This document shows positions 9,374 through 50,748 of a stretch of 64,000 bases of DNA, one piece after another. Positions within the stretch are counted from its first letter, which is position 1. Each line of letters begins with the position of its first letter. This DNA comes from a phage. The position numbers were made by a program, and so were the translations under genes. Below the pieces are notes generated by a model that saw only the letters and a program-made list of their open reading frames with translations, made no database searches and was not told the origin of the DNA. The stretch is taken from the sequence record PZ053912.1, one strand, 5' to 3'.

Positions 9374-11587
9374 TTATTTGGCCGCTTCCACGGCCTTCAT
9401 GAATTTAACGATTTGAGCGACCTGTTCTTTGGAAAGAGTACCACGTCGTCCCATGTATTCTGACACAATATGATAATTGGTTTCGAATTCAATAACCATT
9501 TTATCATCATTATCGTAAGCATTATCTTTAAGCTTATCGAAAATTTTAGCACACAATTCTAACTTCTTATTCAGGTCTGTATTAGTAGCACCTGCGAATC
9601 GATTCCATCCCCAACGATTATTTACTGTTGAGAGTTTTGCAAAGTCTTTACTGATTTCTTTGTTCTTAGAGCTAAAATACTTACTAAGGAAGTTAAGCTC
9701 TTCGTTACGAGTAATATGATTCAAATAAGGCTGTGCTCTACGACTTGGTGATACATACTCATCATAATCCACTTTATCAATTAGCGTAATATAGTCATTA
9801 ATTGATTTTTCGAACAAGCATTCTACTTCACCAAGTTTACGAACTTTCTTAGCAATCTGTGGACGAACTACAGTGAACTCTTTAATACCTGACAAATCAG
9901 CAATACGGGTCAAGAAATTGGAGTCATAGTTCAACCAACCTTTATCTGCGTCAAGACATTCAGCATTAGAACGATTACGAACTATAGCATAACCTTGGAT
10001 TTCATCTGCTTCACTCGCTGGAATAAAGAGATCTTCTGATACCCAAACGTCGTTTTCATTCTTAAAGAATCGATGAGCACTTGGCGATTTAGGACGAGGC
10101 TCATTAGTCCGTTTCCTGACTTCAATCCATGGCTTAACGATTTGTAAAAGCTCTGAAGTCTTGTACATGTTAATGTTGTCGCCATCAAAGATAACTTTAA
10201 GGCGTTCCAGAAGTTTCATTGCATCTTCGTCTGTAGGGTCAACGAATAGTACACTTTTACCAAAACCGCGTGGAACTTTACCAGTTAATTTAACCTCGTC
10301 TTTAGACATTTCAATTGAATTAAGAGCTCGCATTAATGGAACGCGTCCCTTAACGTCGTCAATAACGATTTCAACATTTTTAATGTTAATGCCAATCAGG
10401 CTGTTAATTGAAATGGTCGATGATGAGCTACCACTTTCACGAATACGACGAAGACGAGGGGATTCAACGATATCATATACGACGCCAAGATTACACCACT
10501 CAGGCCCCATTTTAAAACGTTTGTACAACTCAGAATAAGTTAGTTGTTCTTTAGAGTATTTCAGTGATTCAATATTAGACCCAGCCTTTTCCATGTATTT
10601 ACGAGCGGTATAACCAAGAGAATCAATTTCACGGAACACATGACGTGGGTATTTACAATCAATCCATTTCTTAGAATCTTCAGCGAACAATTTAGCATCG
10701 ATTTCTGCAACGCGTTTATGGATATTTGCTACTGTACGTTTATCAAATGACAATGCTTCACGAGACGGAGCTACGTCTAGTTCACCCATAGGGAATTTAA
10801 TATAAGCTGTGGTGCATCGAGTCATCATCCATGTTTGTTCTTTAATAACACTTCCGATTGGATATACAATACCACCGTAAACAGCCATGATATTACCGCG
10901 TTCACCCCATGGAGCTTCCTTGGCCAAATATACATCGTCAAATTCAGGGAAGTATTTAATATCTTTAACACCACGAACTTCTGCAATATCACCTAGAGGA
11001 CGCATAACATATGCAATTTCGGATGCAAACTTTTCAAAATCTTCCGGGTTAACCGGTACAACTACTTCTACACCCGTACGGTCATCAGGACCCATCTTAT
11101 CTACAAAGGTCGGCTTAATCTGTGGACCTGTGTCATCTTGGTAGATTACGTAACCATGAACTTCACCATTATGATAAGACGTAAGGTTAAACGTATCAGT
11201 ATATGCTAATGGAGCTTTAGAGCCGAGTCCGAATCCACCAATGAAATCGTTACTCGATGTTTTAGTTGAAGCAAAATATGAGTTATAAATTCCTGGCTCT
11301 TCGTCATTACCACGAATAGTGAAATCACTCATACCAGGTCCAAAATCACGAACTACAAAACGTGGGTCTAAACGACCTGGAGCCTGAACAATAAACTTAT
11401 CAGTGCAACCATTAAGAATTTGCCCATCAATACAGTTTGTGATTAATTCACGTACACAAGCCAATTCTTTGTTTGTATAAAGGTCATTAGACAAAATCTT
11501 ATAAACTTTGCTATTGCCTTGAATAGTAAATGCTGTGCTCTTACCGCCTGAACCAATAATCGTTTCTTTAGCCGTTTCAATAATCAT
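9374..11587 (-). CDS. rIIA: rIIA
   Basis: 737 aa (T4 725 aa); MIIETAKETIIGSGGKSTAF..KVYKILSNDLYTNK resembles T4 rIIA; directly upstream of rIIB. Confidence 0.9.
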   Translation of the reverse strand: MIIETAKETIIGSGGKSTAFTIQGNSKVYKILSNDLYTNKELACVRELITNCIDGQILNGCTDKFIVQAPGRLDPRFVVRDFGPGMSDFTIRGNDEEPGIYNSYFASTKTSSNDFIGGFGLGSKAPLAYTDTFNLTSYHNGEVHGYVIYQDDTGPQIKPTFVDKMGPDDRTGVEVVVPVNPEDFEKFASEIAYVMRPLGDIAEVRGVKDIKYFPEFDDVYLAKEAPWGERGNIMAVYGGIVYPIGSVIKEQTWMMTRCTTAYIKFPMGELDVAPSREALSFDKRTVANIHKRVAEIDAKLFAEDSKKWIDCKYPRHVFREIDSLGYTARKYMEKAGSNIESLKYSKEQLTYSELYKRFKMGPEWCNLGVVYDIVESPRLRRIRESGSSSSTISINSLIGINIKNVEIVIDDVKGRVPLMRALNSIEMSKDEVKLTGKVPRGFGKSVLFVDPTDEDAMKLLERLKVIFDGDNINMYKTSELLQIVKPWIEVRKRTNEPRPKSPSAHRFFKNENDVWVSEDLFIPASEADEIQGYAIVRNRSNAECLDADKGWLNYDSNFLTRIADLSGIKEFTVVRPQIAKKVRKLGEVECLFEKSINDYITLIDKVDYDEYVSPSRRAQPYLNHITRNEELNFLSKYFSSKNKEISKDFAKLSTVNNRWGWNRFAGATNTDLNKKLELCAKIFDKLKDNAYDNDDKMVIEFETNYHIVSEYMGRRGTLSKEQVAQIVKFMKAVEAAK

Positions 11588-11599
11588 ATTTTTCTCTCA

Positions 11600-11800
11600 T
11601 CACAAGTTACGTTTAAAAATTTCTGCTACTTCAAGAAGTTCTTCTTTAGTAGCTGTATCGGTTTGTATTTTATATCGAATTTCTTTAAAGCGTTCTTTAA
11701 AGGACTCTGCTGACTCGATATCAAAAAATCTTTGGATAAGCCGGAATTCCCGGAGTACAGCTTTATCAAAAAGTTCCAAGTCCACGTTATATGTTCTCAT
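11600..11800 (-). CDS. rIIA.1: hypothetical protein (rIIA.1 position)
   Basis: ORF track 66 aa, ATG start; synteny. Confidence 0.5.
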   Translation of the reverse strand: MRTYNVDLELFDKAVLREFRLIQRFFDIESAESFKERFKEIRYKIQTDTATKEELLEVAEIFKRNL

Positions 11801-11892: not shown

Positions 11893-12993
11893 TTACGCTG
11901 TGAAGATTTTATCCCACATCGCAACAACTGCATCTCGGTTATACTTCTTCCATACTGCTTCAGCACGTTTAACTCGAGCTTCGTATGTGTCAGTGAATTC
12001 TAATACAGCTTTTGTGTAAAGCGCAACTACTTCTTTCTTAGGAGTAGAGGAATCAATTTCTACACGCACAGTATCTGGGTCGTATTCGAATGTCGCATGA
12101 GGATAATCCTTAAAAACTAACTGGATTACAGGGACACCTTTAGAGATAGCTTCAATAGAACTATTCTCTACTGTACCTGTGTCAGGACACGTATTAATAA
12201 GTGCTTTAGCTGTTTTAAGACGTTCCATGATTTCACTGTGTGGAGCATCAATAATAACAGGATATTTAGCTGGTGGTGCCCATTTGCTTGGACAGTATCC
12301 TACACCATTTTCGCCTAGTGCTTTAATCGCTTCAAGAGCAACATCAGTACGACGCATTTTAGTGTCATAACGTTGTGCACTAATAATCAGATCAGTCGCC
12401 GGAAGAACTTCAGGTTTCTCATTCAAACAAATAACCGGATAATCTTCGGCTTCAAACAATGGATTTGCTCGCCAATAATCATAATCAATTTTGTCAGTCA
12501 GAGCTGAAGTCATATGGCAATATTTACGTTCAAATTCACGGAAGGCTTTAGTAGGAGCATAACTCTTACCACCATTCTTATGAATTTGAATAGTCTGGTC
12601 CCAAATTTGAACAATGCCACGAGATACCGGTTCAAATGGTGTTGCCATAAAATTCTTATGAACTTTAGAGAGACCTGCGTCTTTAATTGCCTGAACGGTT
12701 AGTTTAGTCGGTTCCATAGTAACAACAAAATCGTATTCATGGATGCCGGCTAGTTCAACAATCTTACGAGCCATAGTATAACTCATACCTAGACTGAATT
12801 TAGTCAGATGACCAACAGGATGGTGTGTAACTTTCCAGTCACCAAACGTGTCATTATCAAAGCCGATATAATCAATATCAGCACCGATGGACACAAGATA
12901 TTTCAACACATTTAAATGTACTGCTTCAAGGCCACCTTGTACACGGTCGGGATTAAATGGGACTGCGCGAGATGGGATAAACATAACTTTCAT
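11893..12993 (-). CDS. putative GT-B fold glycosyltransferase (candidate hmC-DNA pentosyl/arabinosyltransferase)
   Basis: 366 aa; C-terminal VENSSIEAISKGVPVI resembles GT4/GT-B nucleotide-sugar binding motif (E..EA...G.PV); occupies the locus where T4 has gene 60; T4 a-gt and b-gt loci lack a glucosyltransferase here. Confidence 0.55.
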   Translation of the reverse strand: MKVMFIPSRAVPFNPDRVQGGLEAVHLNVLKYLVSIGADIDYIGFDNDTFGDWKVTHHPVGHLTKFSLGMSYTMARKIVELAGIHEYDFVVTMEPTKLTVQAIKDAGLSKVHKNFMATPFEPVSRGIVQIWDQTIQIHKNGGKSYAPTKAFREFERKYCHMTSALTDKIDYDYWRANPLFEAEDYPVICLNEKPEVLPATDLIISAQRYDTKMRRTDVALEAIKALGENGVGYCPSKWAPPAKYPVIIDAPHSEIMERLKTAKALINTCPDTGTVENSSIEAISKGVPVIQLVFKDYPHATFEYDPDTVRVEIDSSTPKKEVVALYTKAVLEFTDTYEARVKRAEAVWKKYNRDAVVAMWDKIFTA

Positions 12994-13036: not shown

Positions 13037-13833
13037 TAGGACATCCAACACATTTTATAACCTTTGCAGGTTCTGTTAGGATTATTTAATGCTTTCAATA
13101 TATTAGAAGACCCTATATCTAAATACTCCCTTAATTCATAAAGATAGTTAAAATCAATAGTTTCACCTGTTTTTACACTTGTGATTCTTATAGGCCTTCT
13201 TTCATATTTAGATTTATACAACTCTCTAGTCTTAGCTTTAGTTTCTTCTGACCTAGGAGTGTATGGTTTAAATCCTTTTGTTTTAAATGTTTCCATTCTT
13301 GATTTAGTTATTTTATCCTGGTGTTCTTTTGTTTTTACAGGTGCTTTTCGCCCATTCTCCCAAGATAACTTGTTGGCCTGTATTATTTTATCTATTGCTT
13401 CTTGCGTATGAGTTTTACCATAAAATGGATTTAATTCGCCTATACGTTGTGAAGCAATATGTGACATTAATTCTCTTGTTGCTTTAGTATGTTTTTTACC
13501 TTTAAATGGGTTGCCATTTTTAGCAATCCATTCTTTCATAAATCTAGAGTGCTCTTTAGAGAATTCTTGTTTAAGCCAATCATAATCTCTAGAATTTCTA
13601 GCTCCCATGTAAAAAGCTCTAATAGCCATAAGCATAGAACGGTTCTTATGAATTTTATAAAGCAATAAATGGGCGATAAAATGCTCTCTAGGGGTCATTT
13701 TAACTAGATTTGATTTATCATTACTCCCACCCATAGATTTAGGCAAAATATGGTGAGTTTCAGTATAATTAGGAATAGTGCTGCGGTTTTTAGCCGCAGC
13801 GATAAGTTTATCATAAATTTTACGGTAATTCAT
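13036..13833 (-). CDS. free-standing HNH homing endonuclease with NUMOD3-like repeats (Mob-type)
   Basis: HHILPKSMGGSNDKSNLVKMTPREHFIAH HNH motif; repeated NPFKGKKHT / NPFYGKTHT motifs; ATG at 13833 overlapping gp39 stop (TAATG); track start 13848 is TTG. Confidence 0.8.
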   Translation of the reverse strand: MNYRKIYDKLIAAAKNRSTIPNYTETHHILPKSMGGSNDKSNLVKMTPREHFIAHLLLYKIHKNRSMLMAIRAFYMGARNSRDYDWLKQEFSKEHSRFMKEWIAKNGNPFKGKKHTKATRELMSHIASQRIGELNPFYGKTHTQEAIDKIIQANKLSWENGRKAPVKTKEHQDKITKSRMETFKTKGFKPYTPRSEETKAKTRELYKSKYERRPIRITSVKTGETIDFNYLYELREYLDIGSSNILKALNNPNRTCKGYKMCWMS

Positions 13834-15653
13834 TATCCTAGCATCCAATCTTTACGGAGTTCAGGGTCGTTACCCATGAGCATTTCAAATAGTTCTTTCC
13901 AATTTTCAGGAAGTTTAACTACGTCGTACACAGGGTTTTGAATCATTTCTTTATATTCATCCCGCTGAAGTGAGCCCAATCCCTTGATGTATCGAATACT
14001 ATGCTTAGGCAGTGTATCTTTAGCTTCTTCATACTCAGCTACAGTATAAAACCATTTTTGAGTTTTGCCAATTTGTGCAATAATTACAGGCGTTTTAACA
14101 AAGCGAATACGTCCTTGTTCAAACAATTCAGGCCAATTACTAAAGAAAGCAAGCAAAGCCGGATAGATACTTCCAAGACCGTCATGATCGGCATCGGTCA
14201 TAATTGCAATATTACGATAGTTCGTATTCTCTGCCTTTTCACCAAGAATAAGACCTGTGATAGCACAGATATCGAAGAGCTCTTTGTTCTTCATCATATC
14301 GGCATATGACATACCCCAGCTATTCATCACCTTACCACGTAATGGGAATCCGCCGTGTAGTTCACGGTCACGAACATCAATGAGATAACCAATTGCCGAA
14401 TCACCTTCTGTTAAAAACAATGTCGTATCTGCATCTTTACCACATTGGTTAGCTTTAATATGCTTATGAACCTTAGCTTTAGTTGCCTTTTTAGCTGCTT
14501 TAGTTTCTGCAGCCTTTTCTGCTGCCAATTTACGAGCTAATGCTGCTTCAACAATAGGCATAATCAAGGCTTCGTTTTTAAGAAGTGCCTGAGCAATTTT
14601 CTTAGCATCTAATTGGATATGATTACGAATATCACCATACGTTGACGTTAAACGTTCTTTAGTCTGAGAATCAAAACGCATGTTGCTCATGTCTCTAATA
14701 AACATCAACATTGTGAGACATTCTTTAACACGAGCTTTAGTGACTTCAATACCCTTATATTTCTTTTTAATACCGGGCAAAAGATGTTCGCAGATATCAT
14801 CCATTACACATTCAACATGATGACCACCATTTTTAGTATGGATGTTATTCACATAAGTTAAATGACGGAAGCCGTCTGGTGATGTTGTGAATGCTATAGA
14901 GACTTTATCATTTTCTTGAATGATGTTATCTTCGCCAAATTGTTTAGCAAATCGTTTAAAATTACCATCAACTTTTTTACCATTAAATGTGAACTTGATA
15001 TCAGGATAAACGACTGCCAATGTTTGAAGTCGGTCTAAAGTAATATCTAAATAAATTTGAGATAAATTATGCTCTTCAAATGAAGAGAAATCAGGAGTGA
15101 AGATTACTTTGGTGCCTTTACCTTTAGATTTCTTAGAAGACCATGATTTGTTTTCCATTCCGTTTGAACAGTTAACAGTGATTTCATTTTCGCCATCTGA
15201 CGTGATGCCTGTAAACAACGTAGAGAAGATATTAGTTAAACTACTCCCGACGCCGTTCATACCACCAGTCTTGCGTTCAGAGTCATCACCAAAATTACCA
15301 CCAGCCTTTGGAATAGTCCAGGCTGCTACAGGCCCAGGAATTTGTTCACCTGTTTGGTCGGTGACCATTGCTTGAGGAATACCACGTCCGTTATCTTCCA
15401 CCGAAACTTGATTATTTTTAATTTGCACATCAATTTTATTTGCAAACTTAAATGATGTACGAATAGCTTCATCAACCGAGTTGTCAATAATCTCATCGAT
15501 TAATTTAATCAGACCAGGAACATATTCAACTTGTTGATATTTACCAAACAAAAAACGCTCGTGGGCTTCTTTGGCCGAAGAACCAATATACATGCCACTG
15601 CGTTTCTTAATATGTTCTACATCTGACAATACCTTAATTTCATTTTTAATCAT
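13833..15653 (-). CDS. 39: DNA topoisomerase II large (ATPase, GyrB-like) subunit gp39, uninterrupted 606 aa form
   Basis: MIKNEIKVLSDVEHIKKRSGMYIGS..LIDEIIDNSVDEAIR GHKL ATPase; 606 aa equals T4 gp39+gp60 fused, so no separate gene 60. Confidence 0.9.
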   Translation of the reverse strand: MIKNEIKVLSDVEHIKKRSGMYIGSSAKEAHERFLFGKYQQVEYVPGLIKLIDEIIDNSVDEAIRTSFKFANKIDVQIKNNQVSVEDNGRGIPQAMVTDQTGEQIPGPVAAWTIPKAGGNFGDDSERKTGGMNGVGSSLTNIFSTLFTGITSDGENEITVNCSNGMENKSWSSKKSKGKGTKVIFTPDFSSFEEHNLSQIYLDITLDRLQTLAVVYPDIKFTFNGKKVDGNFKRFAKQFGEDNIIQENDKVSIAFTTSPDGFRHLTYVNNIHTKNGGHHVECVMDDICEHLLPGIKKKYKGIEVTKARVKECLTMLMFIRDMSNMRFDSQTKERLTSTYGDIRNHIQLDAKKIAQALLKNEALIMPIVEAALARKLAAEKAAETKAAKKATKAKVHKHIKANQCGKDADTTLFLTEGDSAIGYLIDVRDRELHGGFPLRGKVMNSWGMSYADMMKNKELFDICAITGLILGEKAENTNYRNIAIMTDADHDGLGSIYPALLAFFSNWPELFEQGRIRFVKTPVIIAQIGKTQKWFYTVAEYEEAKDTLPKHSIRYIKGLGSLQRDEYKEMIQNPVYDVVKLPENWKELFEMLMGNDPELRKDWMLG

Positions 15654-32198: not shown

Positions 32199-32561
32199 TT
32201 AAAAGAATTTAAATTTTTTCTTGGTCCGTTCATTAAAAGCTTGTTGTACTTGCATTGTAACACATTTTTCAACATGTGGTGCAAGTTCTGCTTTTCTATC
32301 CTGGTCAAGAACTGCAAAGTCCATTACGATTTTACCATCAACCCAGTCTAGTTTTGTAATATAGACTATATGATGAGAACCGTCTTCAAGTGTAATCAGA
32401 ATCTCTTGAATGACATTTTCCATTGCTGAACGGATAATTTTAAGAGATTCATTAAACACTCGTTCTTTGCGAATGTCTTCCCCTTCCGAAGAAGGGGATT
32501 CATCAACGATTTCTAGATTTAAATCATCGAGATTATTCATCGAAATCTTCCATTTCGTCAA
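32199..32561 (-). CDS. 40: hypothetical protein at gene 40 position
   Basis: 120 aa; synteny between 41 and uvsX. Confidence 0.45.
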   Translation of the reverse strand: MTKWKISMNNLDDLNLEIVDESPSSEGEDIRKERVFNESLKIIRSAMENVIQEILITLEDGSHHIVYITKLDWVDGKIVMDFAVLDQDRKAELAPHVEKCVTMQVQQAFNERTKKKFKFF

Positions 32562-33705
32562 GGTCGTTTTCTATATCTGCTGCAGACGGAGCATCAGAAG
32601 TTTTAACCGGAACTTTAGTTGTTGCTTTGCAATTAATAAGGTCATTAACAGCGTCATCAACTTCTTTAATAGAAGAGATAGCACCTAGTTTATATTTAGT
32701 TTCAATTGCATCTCGGAAAGGTTTGTGTTTAAACAACGGTCCCCAGAATTCTACACAATCAGTAGCTTTAGCACGCCATGATTTCTCTTCACGAATCATT
32801 TCGCCTGTTTCTTCGTCAAGGAATTCTCGAGCATACCAACCAGCTTTAGGCTTAACCACAAAACCGATTTCAGTTGCCATTTCTAACAAGCCACTGAATG
32901 GGTCGATACCACCATCGAAATTAACCGTGATTGGGAAAGTAGATTTCTCTTTAACTGTACGAGATTTTTCTGCTTTCAACGTGAAGTCATAACCGGTCAA
33001 TTCTGTACCTTCTTTAACCTGACGTTTAGAGATAAAGAATACGGTGTTAGCAGAGTAAAGAATACCTGTGCCACCGCCCATAATCTCTTTAGGATACAAT
33101 CCGCCAATTTCCATTGCTGTATGGTTGATTGCAACACATGGAATATCTTTAATAGTCAGATAAGGAGTCACAATGCGGAACAGAGATTTAAGTGCCTTAG
33201 CACGAGACATATCACCTACGACTTTCTCGTTCAATGCATCTTCGGTTTCTTTCTTAGATGCAGTATTACCGATTGAATCGATAAAGATAATAACTTTATC
33301 ACCGCGTTCAATCGCGTCAAGCTGATTAGTCATATCAACTTTAAGTTGTTCGACAGATTGAATCGGAGTATGAACTACACGGTCTAAATCAACACCCATT
33401 GAACGAAAATAAGATTCTGAAGCACCAAATTCTGAATCATAGAACAAACAAATTGCATCTTTATATTTCTTCATATATGCTGCAACCATGGTCAGTCCAA
33501 ACAACGTTTTAAAGTGTTTAGAAGGAGCAGCAAAAATAGTTAAGCCTGATTGCAACCCGGCATTCAGTGCACCACCTAATGCAATATTCAACATCGGAAT
33601 ACGAGTAGGGACTTCATCGCGATTATTAAACAGCTTAGACTTAGTCAAGTCTGCAGTCATTTTAGAAGTAGAAGCTTTAATCAGACGAGATTTTAAATCA
33701 GACAT
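32533..33705 (-). CDS. uvsX: UvsX recombinase (RecA/Rad51 family)
   Basis: 390 aa; MSDLKSRLIKASTSK.., acidic C-terminus, matches T4 UvsX. Confidence 0.9.
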   Translation of the reverse strand: MSDLKSRLIKASTSKMTADLTKSKLFNNRDEVPTRIPMLNIALGGALNAGLQSGLTIFAAPSKHFKTLFGLTMVAAYMKKYKDAICLFYDSEFGASESYFRSMGVDLDRVVHTPIQSVEQLKVDMTNQLDAIERGDKVIIFIDSIGNTASKKETEDALNEKVVGDMSRAKALKSLFRIVTPYLTIKDIPCVAINHTAMEIGGLYPKEIMGGGTGILYSANTVFFISKRQVKEGTELTGYDFTLKAEKSRTVKEKSTFPITVNFDGGIDPFSGLLEMATEIGFVVKPKAGWYAREFLDEETGEMIREEKSWRAKATDCVEFWGPLFKHKPFRDAIETKYKLGAISSIKEVDDAVNDLINCKATTKVPVKTSDAPSAADIENDLDEMEDFDE

Positions 33706-33804: not shown

Positions 33805-34353
33805 TTAACGAGCCCATTTGATAATTTCTGTAATCAAATAATTACGTTCGCTTGCATTAAATCCTATAACTTTGTTAGCACCGTCATGATTAAGTAATTG
33901 ATACGTTTGGATTTTGTTATGAATTGCAAACTCTTCAAAATATGAAATGACTGTATTAAAACCGAATGAAGACAAAGTAATAAGATCGTCTTCAAAACTT
34001 TCAGTCATTTCGTTACGTGTTAAAATAATTGTGAACACATCATGGTTTTGGCAAAGACGAACATAATCCTGTTCATAAACGTCAAGAACCGAGTCCGCAT
34101 CTTGTCGAATACGTCCATAAACCCAGTTACTAATATATCCACGGTCTAACAGATAAATCTTAGTAGGGTCTAAATAATTCAACATCGTTTCGAAACAGCC
34201 AACTTCATTTCGAGACTTAACATCGAAACGTCCATCAACTGTTCGTTTAGGGAAATCAATCTTTACATATCTTTCACTAATTTCCATTATGTCATTAATG
34301 AAAGTTGTTTTACCAGCATTATCCGGGCCATCTACTAAAATAATTTTAGCCAT
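33805..34353 (-). CDS. P-loop nucleotide kinase, thymidylate-kinase-like
   Basis: 182 aa; Walker A GPDNAGKTT and LLDRGYISNWVYG (DRY-type NMP-binding motif); sits where T4 has b-gt. Confidence 0.5.
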   Translation of the reverse strand: MAKIILVDGPDNAGKTTFINDIMEISERYVKIDFPKRTVDGRFDVKSRNEVGCFETMLNYLDPTKIYLLDRGYISNWVYGRIRQDADSVLDVYEQDYVRLCQNHDVFTIILTRNEMTESFEDDLITLSSFGFNTVISYFEEFAIHNKIQTYQLLNHDGANKVIGFNASERNYLITEIIKWAR

Positions 34354-34354
34354 T

Positions 34355-35254
34355 TTATTCCTCGATTACGACATCTTCATATTTAGGTATATTATACGGC
34401 GAAGAAATTAAAGCGTTAAAGTAGATGAACTCGCCAAGACCTGGATGGAATACTTCTTCAGGATTTTCGAAATATTGAATCTTCGGCCGTCCTTTAAGAA
34501 TTTGATAGTACTCAGTTTTAGTTGGTTTAAAAATTCGAATCAGCGCTTCTTCAGGATACTTATTTCTGTCGAAGCTATTATTTGGATCGGTTATATAAAG
34601 CGGTTGGCCTAATTGAATTGCACATTCAACCACTTGTTCAAAACGATAGCACGGGTCACTAATTCGAAATGGATGAAAAATACCATCTAGATGAATAGGA
34701 GCCAAATCACCTACAAGACGCTGCATGATGGAAGGACGTATAACTTTCTGGGTTACGATAATCTTATTACCATCTGCACCTGCGTTAACCAGCACTTCTT
34801 TTTGACGTTCATTCAACACAGTAGTTTGAAGTGAACGATTAACCGACAACATATCAGTTTTTAAGAATTCGTCAATATAAAAACGTGGTTTATTAGGGTC
34901 TGCAGTGATATTGAAATTGAATTCCACATCAAAAGCGCCGTCATATCCGGTGATATCTGTGATTAGAAAATCACAATCATAATAAGCAATTAATGAATCA
35001 ACCACAAATTCATTTTCAGACCAGAAATATTTACGAGTGTTATACGCGTTATCTTTATACCATAATGGAACAAACTTAAATTCTGGAAAAAGACGTTCGC
35101 ATTCTTTAATATCAGATGCATTACGTGGATATGTAATCACATCACCCGGATTAGCACGGTGCAAATGAAGTTGGAAGTTGCCATCCTTAAGGATAGCATA
35201 CTGTCCAGTTTCATAAGACCGCATACTCAAGATAGGTACGCGGAAATTAGCCAT
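34355..35254 (-). CDS. hypothetical protein (299 aa) at T4 b-gt locus
   Basis: ORF track; no recognisable motif by eye. Confidence 0.5.
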   Translation of the reverse strand: MANFRVPILSMRSYETGQYAILKDGNFQLHLHRANPGDVITYPRNASDIKECERLFPEFKFVPLWYKDNAYNTRKYFWSENEFVVDSLIAYYDCDFLITDITGYDGAFDVEFNFNITADPNKPRFYIDEFLKTDMLSVNRSLQTTVLNERQKEVLVNAGADGNKIIVTQKVIRPSIMQRLVGDLAPIHLDGIFHPFRISDPCYRFEQVVECAIQLGQPLYITDPNNSFDRNKYPEEALIRIFKPTKTEYYQILKGRPKIQYFENPEEVFHPGLGEFIYFNALISSPYNIPKYEDVVIEE

Positions 35255-35970
35255 TAGTCAAGGAATCCTTTAACATAATCAAAATCACGTTCAAACACAT
35301 GGGCACTTACCATGGTATGAGTATAATCACCAACTTCTACACCACATTCGTTAGCGATATAATGAAGTAATTTTCCTTGGAGATAAAAATCCAACTGCAT
35401 AACAACAGCACAGTTCTGAGAACGCATATGACAGTGGGTATAAAGCTTACCATCACGAATATAATAAGTCACTGAGTCAGTACATGGATATTCAAGTGTT
35501 TCGTCCGAATCAAGCAAAGCCTGATCTGAACTTTCAAGAATTTGAAACACAACTCTTCGAGAGTTAGGTTTCTCTTTAAGTTCTTTGAGAAGAGCTGGTA
35601 ATTGGGCCGCAATGCGAGGACCATAGAAAGTGTTGAAGTTCGCCGGCAAAACATCTGATTTTGGTTTAGAAATAAATTTAGCGACATTAGGATATGCCTT
35701 AAACGCTTCTTCTGCGTTGGTACCACCAGAAATCATAAACTTCCAGAAGTCTTCGGCATATTCATAAGAGATGCGGTTAATACGTGGGTCGGTCATTTTG
35801 AATGATGATGGAGTGTCAACAACTACTGTCATAGACCCAATTTCATTACAACGTCCAATACGAGAATCAGTTACGAATTCCGGGTTTTCTAAAATTTCAC
35901 GATTGACTGCTTTAAATGCGGTTTGAAAATCTGCGGCTTTGATATATTTCATTGTGTTATGTTTTCCCAT
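35254..35970 (-). CDS. 42: dCMP hydroxymethylase gp42 (thymidylate synthase fold)
   Basis: 238 aa; GAGGT SD; CTDSVTYYIRDGKLYTHCHMRSQNCAVV resembles T4 gp42 catalytic region. Confidence 0.75.
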   Translation of the reverse strand: MGKHNTMKYIKAADFQTAFKAVNREILENPEFVTDSRIGRCNEIGSMTVVVDTPSSFKMTDPRINRISYEYAEDFWKFMISGGTNAEEAFKAYPNVAKFISKPKSDVLPANFNTFYGPRIAAQLPALLKELKEKPNSRRVVFQILESSDQALLDSDETLEYPCTDSVTYYIRDGKLYTHCHMRSQNCAVVMQLDFYLQGKLLHYIANECGVEVGDYTHTMVSAHVFERDFDYVKGFLD

Positions 35971-36249: not shown

Positions 36250-37410
36250 TCATTCCGGGTACCTCAAAGCGTCATCAGAGTTAGTTATATCAATAATAGA
36301 TATAGAGTTTTCTGCTAACCCATTTTTAGATAACTGACGTTTATAATATCTTTCACAATATGTACACGTCGTCCCGCAGATTTCATTAGCACAATCGAAA
36401 TCTGGATGTCTGAACCACCTTTTTTCTAAAAAGCCGTCTAACAAAGAGGTTTCAATATTTACTGTATGTGAAAACTCAATTTCGTTTTCAAGAGTGAAAA
36501 TAGTCTCTAAAGGCTTCCACAGTTCTAACAAATTACCTTCAAACTTTTCAGAAGCGTATGCTTCAAGAACTTTCAAAATGTAGTCTGTGCTACCTGTACG
36601 TCCTGAAACTTTGAATTGAGTGATACCAATATCATTATAAAGTTTCAAATCTTGAGGACGAACAAAACGAGTTCTCAACCAGTTAAATGGGTCTGTATCA
36701 CGAGCTTTAATACAGTGCTGCATAGGATATCCGTTTAAGGATTTAGCATCATCAGCTGTAACATCAGTACTATGGAAAATATAGCAAGAGTCACGATAGC
36801 TACAATGTGTTGTATACCCTTTACCAGCATTAGAACAGAACTCATTTACAAGAACTTCAAATATTATATTGTTCTTATTGCAAAACTCTGCTGCACGCTT
36901 CAGGAAAGAAACTGAACGGTTCTTATGAATTCCACAGCAGACCTTTTTGATATTATATTGGTCATGCAAATATTTGATTTGAGTTACAGCATCGACATGT
37001 AGAATTGTTGAAACTTCAATCTCAATGTCTTTATTGACTTCACGAACAATTTCCATAACAACAGGGTTAGCGATAGTAATACGCCATACGCCTATTGACC
37101 AAAGATACTGAACATAATCCTGAATAGCTTTCTTCTTCCACTCAACTAGTTCTCTTTTTGAACCAGGATTTATCGTGTTGAGTGTATAGTTAAAGCAAAT
37201 ACCTAATTCGTTACAACGTTTAACGTAATCTTCTAACATCTTTTTGTCAACGTCAGGAAGCCTAAAATCAGGTCTGGCTGCTACAAAAGCCATTTCTCTT
37301 GTAGAGCCGTATACTTCATTTATCAAGCTATTAGGATAAGTTTTATTGAGCTCTACGATTTTATCAAGAAGAGCTAAATCAAAATTCGTTCCGATTTTAA
37401 AAGTATTCAT
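36250..37410 (-). CDS. Cys-rich putative metalloenzyme, possibly peptidase-U32-family-like (Fe-S?)
   Basis: 386 aa; IFEVLVNEFCSNAGKGYTTHCSYRDSC and C-terminal CANEICGTTCTYC (Cx4Cx3Cx2C) cluster; co-operonic with the sugar genes. Confidence 0.4.
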   Translation of the reverse strand: MNTFKIGTNFDLALLDKIVELNKTYPNSLINEVYGSTREMAFVAARPDFRLPDVDKKMLEDYVKRCNELGICFNYTLNTINPGSKRELVEWKKKAIQDYVQYLWSIGVWRITIANPVVMEIVREVNKDIEIEVSTILHVDAVTQIKYLHDQYNIKKVCCGIHKNRSVSFLKRAAEFCNKNNIIFEVLVNEFCSNAGKGYTTHCSYRDSCYIFHSTDVTADDAKSLNGYPMQHCIKARDTDPFNWLRTRFVRPQDLKLYNDIGITQFKVSGRTGSTDYILKVLEAYASEKFEGNLLELWKPLETIFTLENEIEFSHTVNIETSLLDGFLEKRWFRHPDFDCANEICGTTCTYCERYYKRQLSKNGLAENSISIIDITNSDDALRYPE

Positions 37411-37467
37411 TTTTTTACATCTCGCGTTAATTGATGCGATGGTTTTTTGCAGGTCTTACTTAAATTA

Positions 37468-37869
37468 TTATAGATTCGGTTTATATGATTTAAATGTTTC
37501 GAATTCGCCTTTATTCATAAGAGCTTTGAATTCGTCAGGACGCATAGCTTTGTCGTCGATAATCCAATCATATACTGGTTTATGTGTTAGCAAATTATGG
37601 TACTTCAAGCCAATGTTTGCCAAGTTCTGAATCAGACTTGGGAGAATGTCAATTGCTATACGACCAGGACCTACTGACTTCATACCACGAGCAGTGTAAA
37701 GCGTTATGGTATGCCCTGCATCATACAGGGCATTAATGGCAGACACCATTTCGACGTCTGGTTTGAAGTTCACGTAATCACGATTGTTATTCCACTCTGT
37801 TATACAATCATCGACATCAAAACAAAGATTAAGCATGTTTTCTACACGGTGCATTAGATTCGTTCCCAT
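37468..37869 (-). CDS. putative HAD-like phosphatase
   Basis: 133 aa; N-terminal FDVDDCIT resembles HAD motif I (DxDx[TV]); short for the family. Confidence 0.4.
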   Translation of the reverse strand: MGTNLMHRVENMLNLCFDVDDCITEWNNNRDYVNFKPDVEMVSAINALYDAGHTITLYTARGMKSVGPGRIAIDILPSLIQNLANIGLKYHNLLTHKPVYDWIIDDKAMRPDEFKALMNKGEFETFKSYKPNL

Positions 37870-39542
37870 TGATGAGTGATATCGCCACCGATTGGACGAT
37901 AGGAAACACCAGTTTCTTTATCAGTTAGTACCCATTTACCAGGATTTTTTGTAATCAGAGTAGCCGTTACAGGTTCTGCTACGTCATAACTAATAGAGCC
38001 GTCTTGAAGTACACGGCCCATGTTACGTAATTGCTTAGTCAGAAGTTCCATACCTTTATAATATGCGGCTACCGCTTTAAGTGGATTATTCTTGAAATAA
38101 CCACCTAATGCAATCCAGATAATTGCCACTGCCAAATGATGATACTCGTTAAACGAACTCATCTTTCCATATTTGTAAACTAATGGATTGATGTTAATAG
38201 TCACATTACAAGTTGTTTCATCAATAGTAAACTGTCCCCAGGTCGGATTAGCATTGAATTCATCATAACCTGAAACAGCATAAAGCACTTTAGCTTCATC
38301 GTACAATTTTGGCCCGTAAATCTTGGTTTCGCCAAAATATCCACGAGGGTCGATAAACTTGACTTCACCATTATCAGTAATCATAGTATTACTGAAGTTC
38401 GGGTCACCATGAATAACAGAGTACTGTCCCTGAGAACGGTTATGATAACGAATAAGGTGTTCTAAAGCTTGTTTCAACATTGGCTTCAGACGTCCAATCT
38501 TAGTGTAGTTCACATGTGTGATTTTACCGAATGAATCAATCAATGGTTGAATACTTTCACAACGATCAATAACTTTCGTATAGAACTCTTTAGTGAAATC
38601 ACGGCGAACAGTTTCAGGACTTACAAAATAAGTGTCTGTGCTGAATTTCAGTGCATCTAAAATTGCATCAACAATTTGTGGACGAGCAAGACTCGATTTG
38701 GATTTAATATATTCAAATGCCGGCTTACCTTTAATGCGTTCCATAATAAAGTGGCCGCCAGGATGATAACTTACAATCCGTGGAACTGAATCTGATTTAA
38801 CTTTCTTATACCAATTGACTTCATCTTTTTGAAGTGCAACGCCCTGTTCTGTTAAAGCAATCTTTGTTACCGTTTCTTCGCCAATTTCAACTGCATTAAA
38901 ACTACGATTAAGTTCACGAACTTCATGAGCTTTTTCAAGTTTAGGCATATCACCAAGGTCGATGATATTCATAAGCTCTGATTTATTGAATGCGCTGCCG
39001 TAAAGGAATTCTACGAAATCACGTCCTTTGCAGTATTCATGAATTTCCTCATCAGTAGAACCCATATAGAATTCCCAGTCTTTGAACTGATAAATTCCTA
39101 CAACATTACCACCTGTTGAACCTACATTAGTGATATTTTCACCGTCGAAATTATATCGACATTCGTCACCCTTAACATAGATTGCGTTAACATTCCAAGA
39201 CCACGAACCAAAATCAGGAATAATATCACACCAGTTAACAATTACATTATGGCCGTCTAAATCTTTGTGCAATTTAGCAAGAGCATAAGCAGAACCATAC
39301 GCTTCATCAACTGTACGAATAGTCACATTGAACCCTTCTTGCTCACAATAAGCTCGAACAGTTTCAGCAAATTTTGAATGAACTACTACAATAATTTCAT
39401 CTGCGCCAAGGTCAGAATAAATTGTATACAAATTGCTCAGAATAGTGTCTTGTTTATAGTTAACAAGCACCTTAGGAATATGATGCGTTATTGGATACAA
39501 ACGAGTTGCCAGTCCAGCACCAAGAATAACAGCTTTTTTCAT
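37854..39542 (-). CDS. bifunctional sugar-1-phosphate nucleotidyltransferase / sugar kinase
   Basis: 562 aa; N-terminal ILGAGLATRLYPIT (G-x-G-T-R-L NTP-transferase motif); C-terminal HGDPNFSN...FIDPRGYFG (APH/choline-kinase-like catalytic loop and DFG-like). Confidence 0.7.
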   Translation of the reverse strand: MKKAVILGAGLATRLYPITHHIPKVLVNYKQDTILSNLYTIYSDLGADEIIVVVHSKFAETVRAYCEQEGFNVTIRTVDEAYGSAYALAKLHKDLDGHNVIVNWCDIIPDFGSWSWNVNAIYVKGDECRYNFDGENITNVGSTGGNVVGIYQFKDWEFYMGSTDEEIHEYCKGRDFVEFLYGSAFNKSELMNIIDLGDMPKLEKAHEVRELNRSFNAVEIGEETVTKIALTEQGVALQKDEVNWYKKVKSDSVPRIVSYHPGGHFIMERIKGKPAFEYIKSKSSLARPQIVDAILDALKFSTDTYFVSPETVRRDFTKEFYTKVIDRCESIQPLIDSFGKITHVNYTKIGRLKPMLKQALEHLIRYHNRSQGQYSVIHGDPNFSNTMITDNGEVKFIDPRGYFGETKIYGPKLYDEAKVLYAVSGYDEFNANPTWGQFTIDETTCNVTININPLVYKYGKMSSFNEYHHLAVAIIWIALGGYFKNNPLKAVAAYYKGMELLTKQLRNMGRVLQDGSISYDVAEPVTATLITKNPGKWVLTDKETGVSYRPIGGDITHQWERI

Positions 39543-39583
39543 GTTGTGGTCCTCATTGGTAAGTAGGAGTATTGTACACTATT

Positions 39584-39727
39584 CTAGTTAAAGCATTCAT
39601 ACTTTGCTTGTAGTCCAATCATAATCCATCCAATTACAAGTGTTGGAATCATTACTGGAGCCGTTAAGCTCCAGTAGATAGTCATGACAAGCATCAATAG
39701 TAAAAGTCCTATTGTTATTGCTTTCAT
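39584..39727 (-). CDS. small hydrophobic membrane protein (47 aa)
   Basis: Manual translation MKAITIGLLLLMLVMTIYWSLTAPVMIPTLVIGWIMIGLQAKYECFN; ATGA overlap with SIS gene stop. Confidence 0.35.
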   Translation of the reverse strand: MKAITIGLLLLMLVMTIYWSLTAPVMIPTLVIGWIMIGLQAKYECFN

Positions 39728-40359
39728 TGTTCGCCTCGTAACATGGCACCTAGTGCACCGCCAGGGTGGAACTTAAGGAAGTCATTAGAGGTAAATCCAC
39801 GCTCAGACGAAAGGTTGATAGCAAACGTATCGATAAGCGCTAACAACAATGTAGTGGACATGGTCGGAGCCAGAGAATTCTCATCAACCTCTACTGCGAT
39901 GCCTGTACAGAAAGAGTAATCAAAAAGGGCTTCATTTTCTTGTGGAATGTCCGGGTTACAATGCAACAGAATCTGTTTGACGTTCGGACGAATCATTTTA
40001 AGATGCTTAGCCACGCCTATCATTTCTTCAGTTTTACCAGAACGACTAATATGAATCAACACATCATTAGGCGCAATGAATCCTGCATCACCGTGAGAAT
40101 AATGCCCAGTGTTCAAGTACATACTCGGGATACCGAGTGAAGCAAATGTCTCAGAAGCTTTAGTTGCAATATTAGCATTCTTACCAACACCTGTAATAAT
40201 TACTCGGCTTTCATAATTACTAAGTCCTGGGCGTCGAAGAGTTTCTAGAATAGCATTATAACGAGCAGGGTTTTGACTAATTACTTTGGCCATAGCGGCC
40301 AAAGAAGAAGCTTGTTTTATGATTGCGTCAATAGCGATAGTAATAGGAGTAGTTTTCAT
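39724..40359 (-). CDS. SIS-domain phosphosugar isomerase, KdsD/GutQ-like (putative arabinose-5-phosphate isomerase)
   Basis: 211 aa; VIITGVGKNANIA, HGDAG, SRSGKTEE, APTMSTT, FHPGGALG align with KdsD/GutQ SIS motifs; lacks CBS domains. Confidence 0.75.
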   Translation of the reverse strand: MKTTPITIAIDAIIKQASSLAAMAKVISQNPARYNAILETLRRPGLSNYESRVIITGVGKNANIATKASETFASLGIPSMYLNTGHYSHGDAGFIAPNDVLIHISRSGKTEEMIGVAKHLKMIRPNVKQILLHCNPDIPQENEALFDYSFCTGIAVEVDENSLAPTMSTTLLLALIDTFAINLSSERGFTSNDFLKFHPGGALGAMLRGEQ

Positions 40360-49750: not shown

Positions 49751-49819
49751 ATTATTTCCTCATTAGTTAATTCATTCTATCATCCGTTTATAAAGCAAAA
49801 AAGGAACTCCGAAGAGTTC

Positions 49820-49993
49820 CTATCCACATAGTACACCGTACAGAGGCTCATTTGAACTTTTAAATCGAATGGGCTTGTATGTAATAGTTCCTTCGGCTTT
49901 AGCTTTATCATAAGACTCTTTAAAACGTCTCATTCTTTCTGCTTTGCCTTTACGGATTTTATCGAAATTTTCAGAGGTCAGGTCGTTCGTCAT
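49820..49993 (-). CDS. small basic protein (57 aa)
   Basis: Manual translation MTNDLTSENFDKIRKGKAERMRRFKESYDKAKAEGT..; GAGGTGA SD; below track cutoff. Confidence 0.3.
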   Translation of the reverse strand: MTNDLTSENFDKIRKGKAERMRRFKESYDKAKAEGTITYKPIRFKSSNEPLYGVLCG

Positions 49994-50032
49994 GCATAAT
50001 CACCTCTCAGAAAATACCTAAATCGATTTCTC

Positions 50033-50254
50033 TCATCGTTTCCACCATTTCTTAACTTGAAATGAATCAACCCACACGAGTTGTTTTGGGTCTGCCTTTA
50101 CAATAGGCGGACAAATTTCTGTAATAGAACCGTCGTGATATTCCTTTTCGGAAATTTTAACACAAAGAGGACCTCCCAATTTAAGGGTGAATCCTGCGTT
50201 CAGATTAAGACGTTTAAACTTTGTTTGAACTAGCGCCATTAATGATGTCCTCAA
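50033..50254 (-). CDS. hypothetical protein (73 aa)
   Basis: ORF track. Confidence 0.4.
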   Translation of the reverse strand: MRTSLMALVQTKFKRLNLNAGFTLKLGGPLCVKISEKEYHDGSITEICPPIVKADPKQLVWVDSFQVKKWWKR

Positions 50255-50537
50255 TAGCCTGACGAGTAGTAATCCACTGGATTTTAATTAACTTGTCATT
50301 ATATGGTTGTCGTAGAATATCCCGAGATTTCTTAATAGCATATTCGTAAGCTTCGAAGTTGTTTTGAATTGCTGCTTCTTGAGCATGAGCATAAAGACGG
50401 TTTAGTTCAAAACGATTCTTTTTAAGAATCTTTTCGGATTTTTTACGTGCTTCAGCTTCATTTTTCTTTTGGATTTCTTGTAGCATTTTAGCTACTGCAT
50501 CTTCTGCTTCTTTATTTTCAATAATCTCGGTAGTCAT
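50214..50537 (-). CDS. hypothetical protein (107 aa)
   Basis: ORF track. Confidence 0.45.
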   Translation of the reverse strand: MTTEIIENKEAEDAVAKMLQEIQKKNEAEARKKSEKILKKNRFELNRLYAHAQEAAIQNNFEAYEYAIKKSRDILRQPYNDKLIKIQWITTRQAIEDIINGASSNKV

Positions 50538-50538
50538 A

Positions 50539-50748
50539 TTATCTCATTAAATTAAAATAAAAACGTCCATCCTCTTCAATACAGAACTCATACTCAACCG
50601 GAGTCCCATTTATCGAAAATGACACGTCATGTGGGTTCAAAGGGTCGATGTCAAAATTAATTTTAAATTCACGACCCAACAGTTTTACCAAATAAGGGAT
50701 TGCTTCGTCAAAAGGTTCTTCTAAGTAGTTAGAGATGTCAATTGTCAT
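50539..50748 (-). CDS. hypothetical protein (about 69 aa from internal ATG)
   Basis: Track ORF 50539..50832 overlaps gp55; trimmed. Confidence 0.35.

Follow-up and report, generated by a model that had tools for sequence, protein, structure and literature searches.

A GT-B glycosyltransferase encoded beside rIIA.1 in a Mosigvirus phage as the probable second arabinosyltransferase of 5-hydroxycytosine DNA

The a-gt and b-gt glucosyltransferases of phage T4 have a GT-B fold, take a UDP-sugar as donor and glycosylate the modified cytosine of the phage DNA after replication. The window analysed in our study, a stretch of 64,000 nucleotides of phage DNA (sequence record PZ053912.1), carries a 366-aa open reading frame that an initial annotation had proposed as the glycosyltransferase of hmC-DNA, replacing both T4 enzymes. 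This locus raises the question of whether its product is a DNA glycosyltransferase and, if so, which sugar it transfers and onto which acceptor. Our analysis indicates that it is probably a UDP-sugar-dependent GT-B DNA glycosyltransferase that adds the second arabinose in a four-step pathway. It is important to note that the gene is already known: its candidacy dates from 2018, a crystal structure was released in 2025, and the pathway papers appeared in 2025-2026.

The reading frame itself is real; it lies on the minus strand, with its ATG at 12993 and its end at 11893 (Table 1), and carries the motif VENSSIEAISKGVPVI, quoted in the initial annotation, at residues 275-290 of its product. Its DNA is 95-99% identical to that of 145 phage records, nearly all of them Escherichia/Shigella Mosigvirus (the RB69 group). 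Over the first 25 kb of the window, the best identity to any record is 97.2%, and the phage is therefore a new isolate of this well-sampled genus. The protein has 98.6% amino acid identity to RB69 ORF003c/gp3 (NP_861693) by tblastn, and a single difference, S315F, separates it from the chain of the phage HY126 glycosyltransferase (PDB 9iqz). Full-length homology to these founding members places it in the RB69 ORF003c/HY126 family, which corresponds to phrog_8302 in PHROGs, an entry labelled 'unknown function' that was matched over residues 1-366 (E 2.5e-222). This family is small, with 5 clusters at 90% identity in a word-indexed protein search and about 8 relatives at E<=1e-30 in an exhaustive HMMER search of 1.8 billion representatives. 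The Pfam scan of the protein gave zero matches even at E<=10.

A profile search of the PDB sequences returned one strong match (E 2.5e-197), to the entries 9iqz (apo) and 9ir0 (with UDP), which were released on 2025-07-16 under the name 'phage HY126 glycosyltransferase'. Because the window protein is one residue away from this crystallised phage enzyme, its identity as a glycosyltransferase is firm, and its GT-B fold and UDP binding are established by the near-identical deposited crystal entries, as given by their titles. The source paper of these entries is presumably He et al. 2026 (Nat Chem Biol). Structure prediction followed by Foldseek, the check that had been suggested for the GT-B/GT4-like assignment, agrees with it. 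AF2 gave a poor model (pLDDT 58), as the alignment of so small a family was shallow; even from this model, a glycosyltransferase fold was retrieved, with 9ir0 first (E 6.6e-50) and then the bacterial GT4 enzymes BshA, PimA, MshA and tll1591 (E 1e-7 to 1e-8), which are the nearest solved folds after the HY126 protein. The search gave 247 matches at E<=0.001, and the top ones among the matches listed are GT-B enzymes.

The resemblance to bacterial GT4 enzymes has clear bounds, since the 366-aa protein is 10-15% identical to them, has no Glycos_transf_1 match (PF00534/PF13692), carries E276-x4-E281 in its conserved C-terminal block in place of the canonical E-x7-E, and has a DNA-linked arabinose as its predicted acceptor. 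The sole E-x7-E of the protein is at residue 86, in its N-terminal half, and G273 occupies the place of the first Glu. PF00534 was reached by one distant member of the alignment only (E 1.7e-8), and PF20706 'GT4-conflict' gave weak matches in three family members (best E 5.9e-4) and none for the window protein. Profile searches of the PDB sequences with the family alignments matched only 9iqz/9ir0, with GT4 entries absent. The motif falls within the best-conserved block of an 11-sequence alignment, where N267, T268, C269, G273, T274, E276, S279, E281, A282, S284, G286, V287, P288 and Q291 show little or no variation; taken alone, it would lie below the level at which a glycosyltransferase can be called. 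The residues conserved throughout the family are G20, G21, R208, E276, E281 and H299, and in the alignment of Thomas et al. 2018 (PMC6024577), Gly-20 and 'Arg-207' correspond to the T4 a-gt ligands of the beta-phosphate.

The gene order in the window, in T4 and in RB69 bears out the placement of the 366-aa gene at the T4 gene-60 position, beside the fused 60+39. Read in the minus-strand direction, with falling coordinates, 60+39 is followed by an HNH ORF, the 366-aa ORF, rIIA.1 and rIIA; the corresponding T4 location holds genes 60, 60.1 and mobA. RB69 ORF003c/gp3 and the HY126 glycosyltransferase gene are the same gene as the 366-aa ORF of the window, with the same place between rIIA.1 and 60+39. 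The RB69 order there is the same minus the HNH gene, and the position is conserved in Mosigvirus. Apart from this homing-endonuclease gene just upstream, nothing of substance differs between the window and RB69. The hairpin in front of the transferase gene is kept base for base in RB69, where it lies downstream of gene 60plus39, and the promoter scan around the 366-aa gene found sites no more numerous than in shuffled sequence.

Table 1. Features of the window at the 366-aa glycosyltransferase locus and in the DNA modification cluster.
Feature	Position	Strand	Remarks
rIIA	9374..11587	-	
rIIA.1	11600..11800	-	
GT-B glycosyltransferase of 366 aa (RB69 ORF003c/gp3 and HY126 enzyme orthologue)	11893..12993	-	ORF, homology, Foldseek, phrog_8302
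GC-rich hairpin followed by a T-run, terminator-like, just upstream of the transferase start codon	13020..13037	-	
HNH/NUMOD3 homing-endonuclease-like ORF, 270 aa	13036..13848	-	
Topoisomerase large subunit, 606 aa, fused gene 60+39 (RB69 '60plus39')	13833..15653	-	
182-aa protein, RB69 gp45 counterpart	33805..34353	-	98.4% identical to RB69 ORF045c
299-aa GT-B fold protein (RB69 gp46:47), proposed first arabinosyltransferase on 5-hydroxycytosine	34355..35254	-	T4 b-gt position
Thymidylate-synthase-family enzyme at the gene 42 position, 5-hydroxy-dCMP synthase	35254..35970	-	Pfam Thymidylat_synt 2.3e-15
386-aa peptidase-U32-family protein (RB69 gp50)	36250..37410	-	Peptidase_U32 7.3e-11; 99.2% to ORF050c
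133-aa protein (RB69 gp51, analogous to HY126 AfhF)	37468..37869	-	99.2% to RB69 ORF051c
562-aa NTP-transferase (N-terminal)/kinase (C-terminal) protein (RB69 gp52:53, analogous to HY126 AfhE)	37854..39542	-	NTP_transferase 9.6e-10
211-aa SIS-domain arabinose-5-phosphate isomerase (RB69 gp55)	39724..40359	-	SIS 1e-10; 100% to ORF055c

The chemistry of the acceptor has been worked out in RB69. Arabinose was found in the DNA of RB69 by Thomas et al. 2018 (PMC6024577), who, using custom HMMs and HHpred, proposed ORF003c as an arabinosyltransferase; ORF053_052c and ORF055c were proposed as UDP-arabinose synthesis genes (PMC6024577). The RB69 cytosine was determined by NMR as beta-D-Araf-(1-3)-alpha-D-Araf-5-hydroxy-2'-deoxycytidine (Lee et al. 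2026, PMC13326640), and its precursor 5-hydroxy-dCMP is made by RB69 gp48, a thymidylate-synthase homologue (PMC13326640). The gene-42 homologue of the window is of this type, being 99.2% identical to RB69 gp48 and nearly identical to PDB 9iqc/9ir2 (E 7.9e-161), with just 25% identity to T4 gp42. Since RB69 gp48 makes 5-hydroxy-dC and not 5-hydroxymethyl-dC, the premise of an hmC acceptor is outdated, and it is replaced here by 5-hydroxycytosine (5hoC). In its arabinosylated form, this base is reported to protect these phages against restriction enzymes, DNA glycosylases and certain CRISPR-Cas systems, a protection relevant to phage therapy and to the engineering of these phages.

With respect to the donor, our results support the view that the cassette at 36250-40359 is an NDP-sugar pathway, with an isomerase of the SIS type, a fused NTP-transferase/kinase and a small protein whose RB69 counterpart has been modelled in the literature as a HAD-like phosphatase. 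Each of its four genes is 95-100% identical to its RB69 counterpart. According to the literature, HY126 AfhE and AfhF convert arabinose-5-phosphate to UDP-arabinose, and the NTP-transferase/kinase fusion makes UDP-arabinofuranose. The 562-aa fusion of the window, which has weak kinase-family Pfam matches, corresponds to RB69 ORF053c plus ORF052c. It has been published that sequencing errors divided two RB69 genes, one into ORF046/047 and the other into ORF052/053 (PMC13326640), a view that the single 562-aa ORF supports. The 133-aa protein had zero Pfam matches; gp51, its counterpart, has been modelled in the literature as a HAD-like phosphatase proposed to convert Araf-1,5-P2 to Araf-1-P. The U32-family protein sits in the cassette, outside the steps of the published UDP-arabinose route, and an annotated counterpart is absent from the DLP1 cluster region shown.

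The loci that hold the T4 glucosyltransferase genes had both been described as empty of such enzymes. For the 47-55 interval (49751..50737), the a-gt locus, this is correct, as it contains just one 107-aa ORF and no a-gt homologue. For the uvsX-42 interval, the b-gt locus, the description stands only in part: homologues of T4 a-gt and b-gt were not detected in the window (tblastn E>2), but between uvsX (32533..33705) and the gene-42 homologue there are a 182-aa ORF and a 299-aa ORF, the latter encoding a GT-B protein, and a GT-B protein is therefore found exactly at the T4 b-gt place. The model of the 299-aa protein is confident (pLDDT 95) and shows a compact GT-B fold most like retaining GT4 enzymes; its sequence gave zero Pfam matches and zero PDB sequence matches. 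RB69 ORF047c and ORF046c match it at 98-100% identity, and it is intact in the window. In the literature, gp46:47 has been proposed as arabinosyltransferase 1 and gp3 (ORF003c) as 'beta-arabinosyltransferase 2', both predicted (PMC13326640). The two-transferase hypothesis for Mosigvirus is repeated in the Durham-collection paper, which places one gene within the sugar cluster and the second in the stretch from rIIA to the topoisomerase gene (PMC13390438). The corrected picture of the window thus has two transferases instead of one, acting on 5hoC instead of hmC.

Some further observations concern the proteins of this interval. By sequence search, a solved structure was found for the 366-aa protein and for the ThyA-like enzyme, not for the 299-aa family. 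The possibility that the 366-aa and 299-aa transferases are paralogues was rejected (hhalign probability 0.2%), and no homology of the 366-aa protein to the proposed first-step family (RB69 gp46:47/DLP3 gp79) was found. The 182-aa protein had zero Pfam matches; its counterpart gp45 has been modelled as a nucleotide (thymidylate-like) kinase (PMC13326640 Table 1).

Special attention has been given to which of the two proteins attaches the first sugar. The initial annotation and Thomas et al. 2018 took the 366-aa protein as the primary or only transferase, a role consistent with the fact that ORF003c was the sole transferase-like RB69 protein obtained from the 2018 HMM searches (PMC6024577), as well as with the GenBank labels 'putative hmC-arabinosyltransferase' or 'DNA alpha-glucosyltransferase' that the gene bears in several records. 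The 2018 search, however, missed the 299-aa protein because the RB69 deposit splits its gene into ORF046c and ORF047c, and the intact protein with its confident GT-B model offers an alternative candidate for the first-sugar transferase. The distribution of the two families, which we determined by tblastn over 50,697 phage records, also bears on this question. The 299-aa family was detected in 349 records spread over many genera, whose carriers include Serratia LC53 and X20, Shewanella Thanatos, Klebsiella, Yersinia, Proteus, Providencia, Edwardsiella, Dhakavirus and Acinetobacter, and it is present in every arabinosylating phage lineage found; in most of the matches listed, the match region overlaps an annotated ThyA-like gene. 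The 366-aa family occurs in 212 records, which by the first word of the organism name are Escherichia (137), Acinetobacter (55), Shigella (13), Enterobacteria (3), 'phage' (2), Mosigvirus (1) and Tegunavirus (1). It has one copy per Escherichia/Shigella phage of the Mosigvirus type and, among the matches listed, two places in Acinetobacter. In Mosigvirus, the 366-aa and 299-aa genes are found at >=95% identity in 156 and 154 records, respectively.

The same tblastn search found no 366-family homologue in LC53 or Thanatos. These phages, reported to have one arabinose per cytosine, possess the full sugar-nucleotide cassette and the 299-aa gene beside the ThyA-like gene. Two arabinoses per cytosine are reported for RB69, Bas46, Bas47 and NP, with one 366-family copy, and three for DLP3, with two copies. 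The number of arabinoses tracks the copy number of the 366 family, as would be expected of an elongating transferase and is hard to reconcile with a first-sugar role; the relation fits, as a correlation over few chemically characterised phages. Considering these data, we regard it as improbable that the 366-aa protein attaches the first sugar, and we favour its assignment to the second.

The paralogues of Acinetobacter phages provide biochemical evidence on the family. DLP3 gp76 and gp77, supplied with UDP-Araf, converted RB69 DNA to a tri-arabinosyl form in vitro (PMC13326640), whereas 5hoC-DNA was not modified by any DLP3 transferase acting singly (Lee et al. 2026, PMC13326640). Within the 366 family, among the experiments considered here, the transfer of arabinofuranose from UDP-Araf to DNA has been shown for this pair only, and for the window protein the activity is putative. 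The need for both paralogues in forming the third arabinose, together with the inactivity of single transferases on 5hoC-DNA, could also mean that the 366-aa protein never works alone but requires the 299-aa transferase as a complex or obligatory tandem partner, in which case neither step could be attributed to a single protein. Against this, LC53 and Thanatos, which have only the 299-aa family, do attain the mono-arabinosyl state, and the first step is therefore independent of the 366 family; moreover, the two families have no detectable sequence relationship (hhalign 0.2%), and their genes are ~21 kb apart in Mosigvirus. We consider such an obligatory tandem to have little probability, comparable to that of the first-sugar role, and a separate second-sugar transferase remains the preferred reading.

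In DLP1, the two 366-family genes (ADLP1_074 and ADLP1_075, counterparts of DLP3 gp76/gp77) are immediate neighbours of the kinase, 299-family, ThyA-like, HAD, pyrophosphorylase and isomerase genes. These copies share 57.5% identity, compared with 40-43% over the full length to the 366-aa protein of the window, which indicates a lineage-specific duplication in Acinetobacter phages. Given this closer mutual relationship of the Acinetobacter copies, sequence supports only weakly the published pairing of RB69 gp3 specifically with DLP3 gp77; judged by these comparisons, the Mosigvirus gene is co-orthologous to both copies. The two arrangements also differ in that the Acinetobacter pair resides in the modification cluster and is needed jointly for the third sugar, whereas Mosigvirus has one distant copy and two sugars.

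This distance from the modification cluster, together with the fact that the closest structural neighbours of the 366-aa protein act on lipids, small molecules and polysaccharides, would be compatible with a target other than DNA, such as a component of the host envelope or a phage protein. Nevertheless, the 366 family is nearly confined to phages that have the arabinosylation cluster, is located inside that cluster in Acinetobacter phages, and includes the DLP3 paralogues that act on DNA in vitro (PMC13326640). A non-DNA target is thus highly improbable, far more so than the other alternatives, and DNA is retained as the acceptor in what follows.

Taking these data together, a four-step pathway can be proposed. 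In the first step, the thymidylate-synthase-family enzyme would make 5-hydroxy-dCMP, which would be phosphorylated and incorporated instead of dCMP, as shown for RB69 gp48. In the second, the cassette is predicted to convert ribulose-5-P to UDP-arabinofuranose through isomerase, kinase, phosphatase and uridylyltransferase activities, a conversion that the literature shows for the HY126 homologues and that is assigned to the window from the 95-100% identity to the RB69 genes. In the third, the 299-aa GT-B enzyme is proposed to put the first alpha-D-Araf on O5 of the base. In the fourth, the 366-aa enzyme would attach a second D-Araf, in beta linkage, at O3 of the first DNA-borne arabinose, as suggested by comparative genomics and the activity of the Acinetobacter-phage paralogues. 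Its product would be the di-arabinosylated cytosine, the dominant form in Mosigvirus DNA; mono- and di-arabinosylated cytidines occur at 1:4 in a Mosigvirus (PMC13390438). The earlier claim that the 366-aa protein consumes the sugar made by the cassette is retained as regards a DNA-modifying GT-B enzyme, but the sugar that it transfers is most likely the second one, with the 299-aa enzyme proposed to act first.

The stereochemistry of this scheme deserves consideration. The first linkage is alpha and the second beta, and the nearest structural neighbours of both transferases are retaining GT4 enzymes. An alpha and then a beta linkage from a single donor mean that one enzyme retains and the other inverts. 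If the donor is the alpha-anomer of UDP-D-Araf, the 366-aa enzyme would invert the anomeric configuration within a fold family whose members are known to retain it. It is a doubtful proposition, which we advance only tentatively, that this enzyme is mechanistically unusual, as a GT4-like protein without E-x7-E that forms a beta-(1-3) Araf linkage onto a DNA-bound sugar, and that the incomplete modification, with its ~4:1 proportion of di- to mono-arabinosylated forms, may reflect sequence-context selectivity of this enzyme.

Compared with better-known systems, the 366-aa protein resembles T4 a-gt and b-gt in its GT-B fold, its UDP-sugar donor and its action on the modified cytosine of phage DNA, with no detectable sequence similarity (blastp E>=5.8 to a-gt of GT72 and b-gt of GT63). 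The T4 enzymes transfer glucose onto the hydroxymethyl group of 5hmC, whereas the 366-aa enzyme would transfer arabinofuranose in 5hoC-containing DNA, most likely onto a sugar already on the base. Its closest functional analogue is the ba-gt/'TAGT' enzyme of T2/T6 (gentiobiosyl-hmC), which adds a second sugar onto the first; this enzyme uses glucose and a different base, and the likeness noted here is one of function.

Among the matches of the 366 family, the Tegunavirus-named record has one homologue, at <60% identity; if this match is real, di-arabinosylated DNA is predicted for that phage. Yersinia-named records are absent among the 366-family matches, and Yersinia phage TG1 has the 299-aa family.

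Finally, the HNH gene upstream of the transferase shows possible traces of its origin. In RB69, the gap between 60plus39 and ORF003c is 42 nt, with no HNH gene. In the window, gene 39 ends in ...DWMLG and has a 16-nt overlap with the HNH endonuclease ORF, whose end codons (W-M-S-stop), together with the hairpin behind them, match exactly the 3' terminus of RB69 60plus39. From these sequences, the HNH gene seems to have been inserted at the very 3' terminus of gene 39. At the same spot, T4 has mobA, a defective HNH gene.
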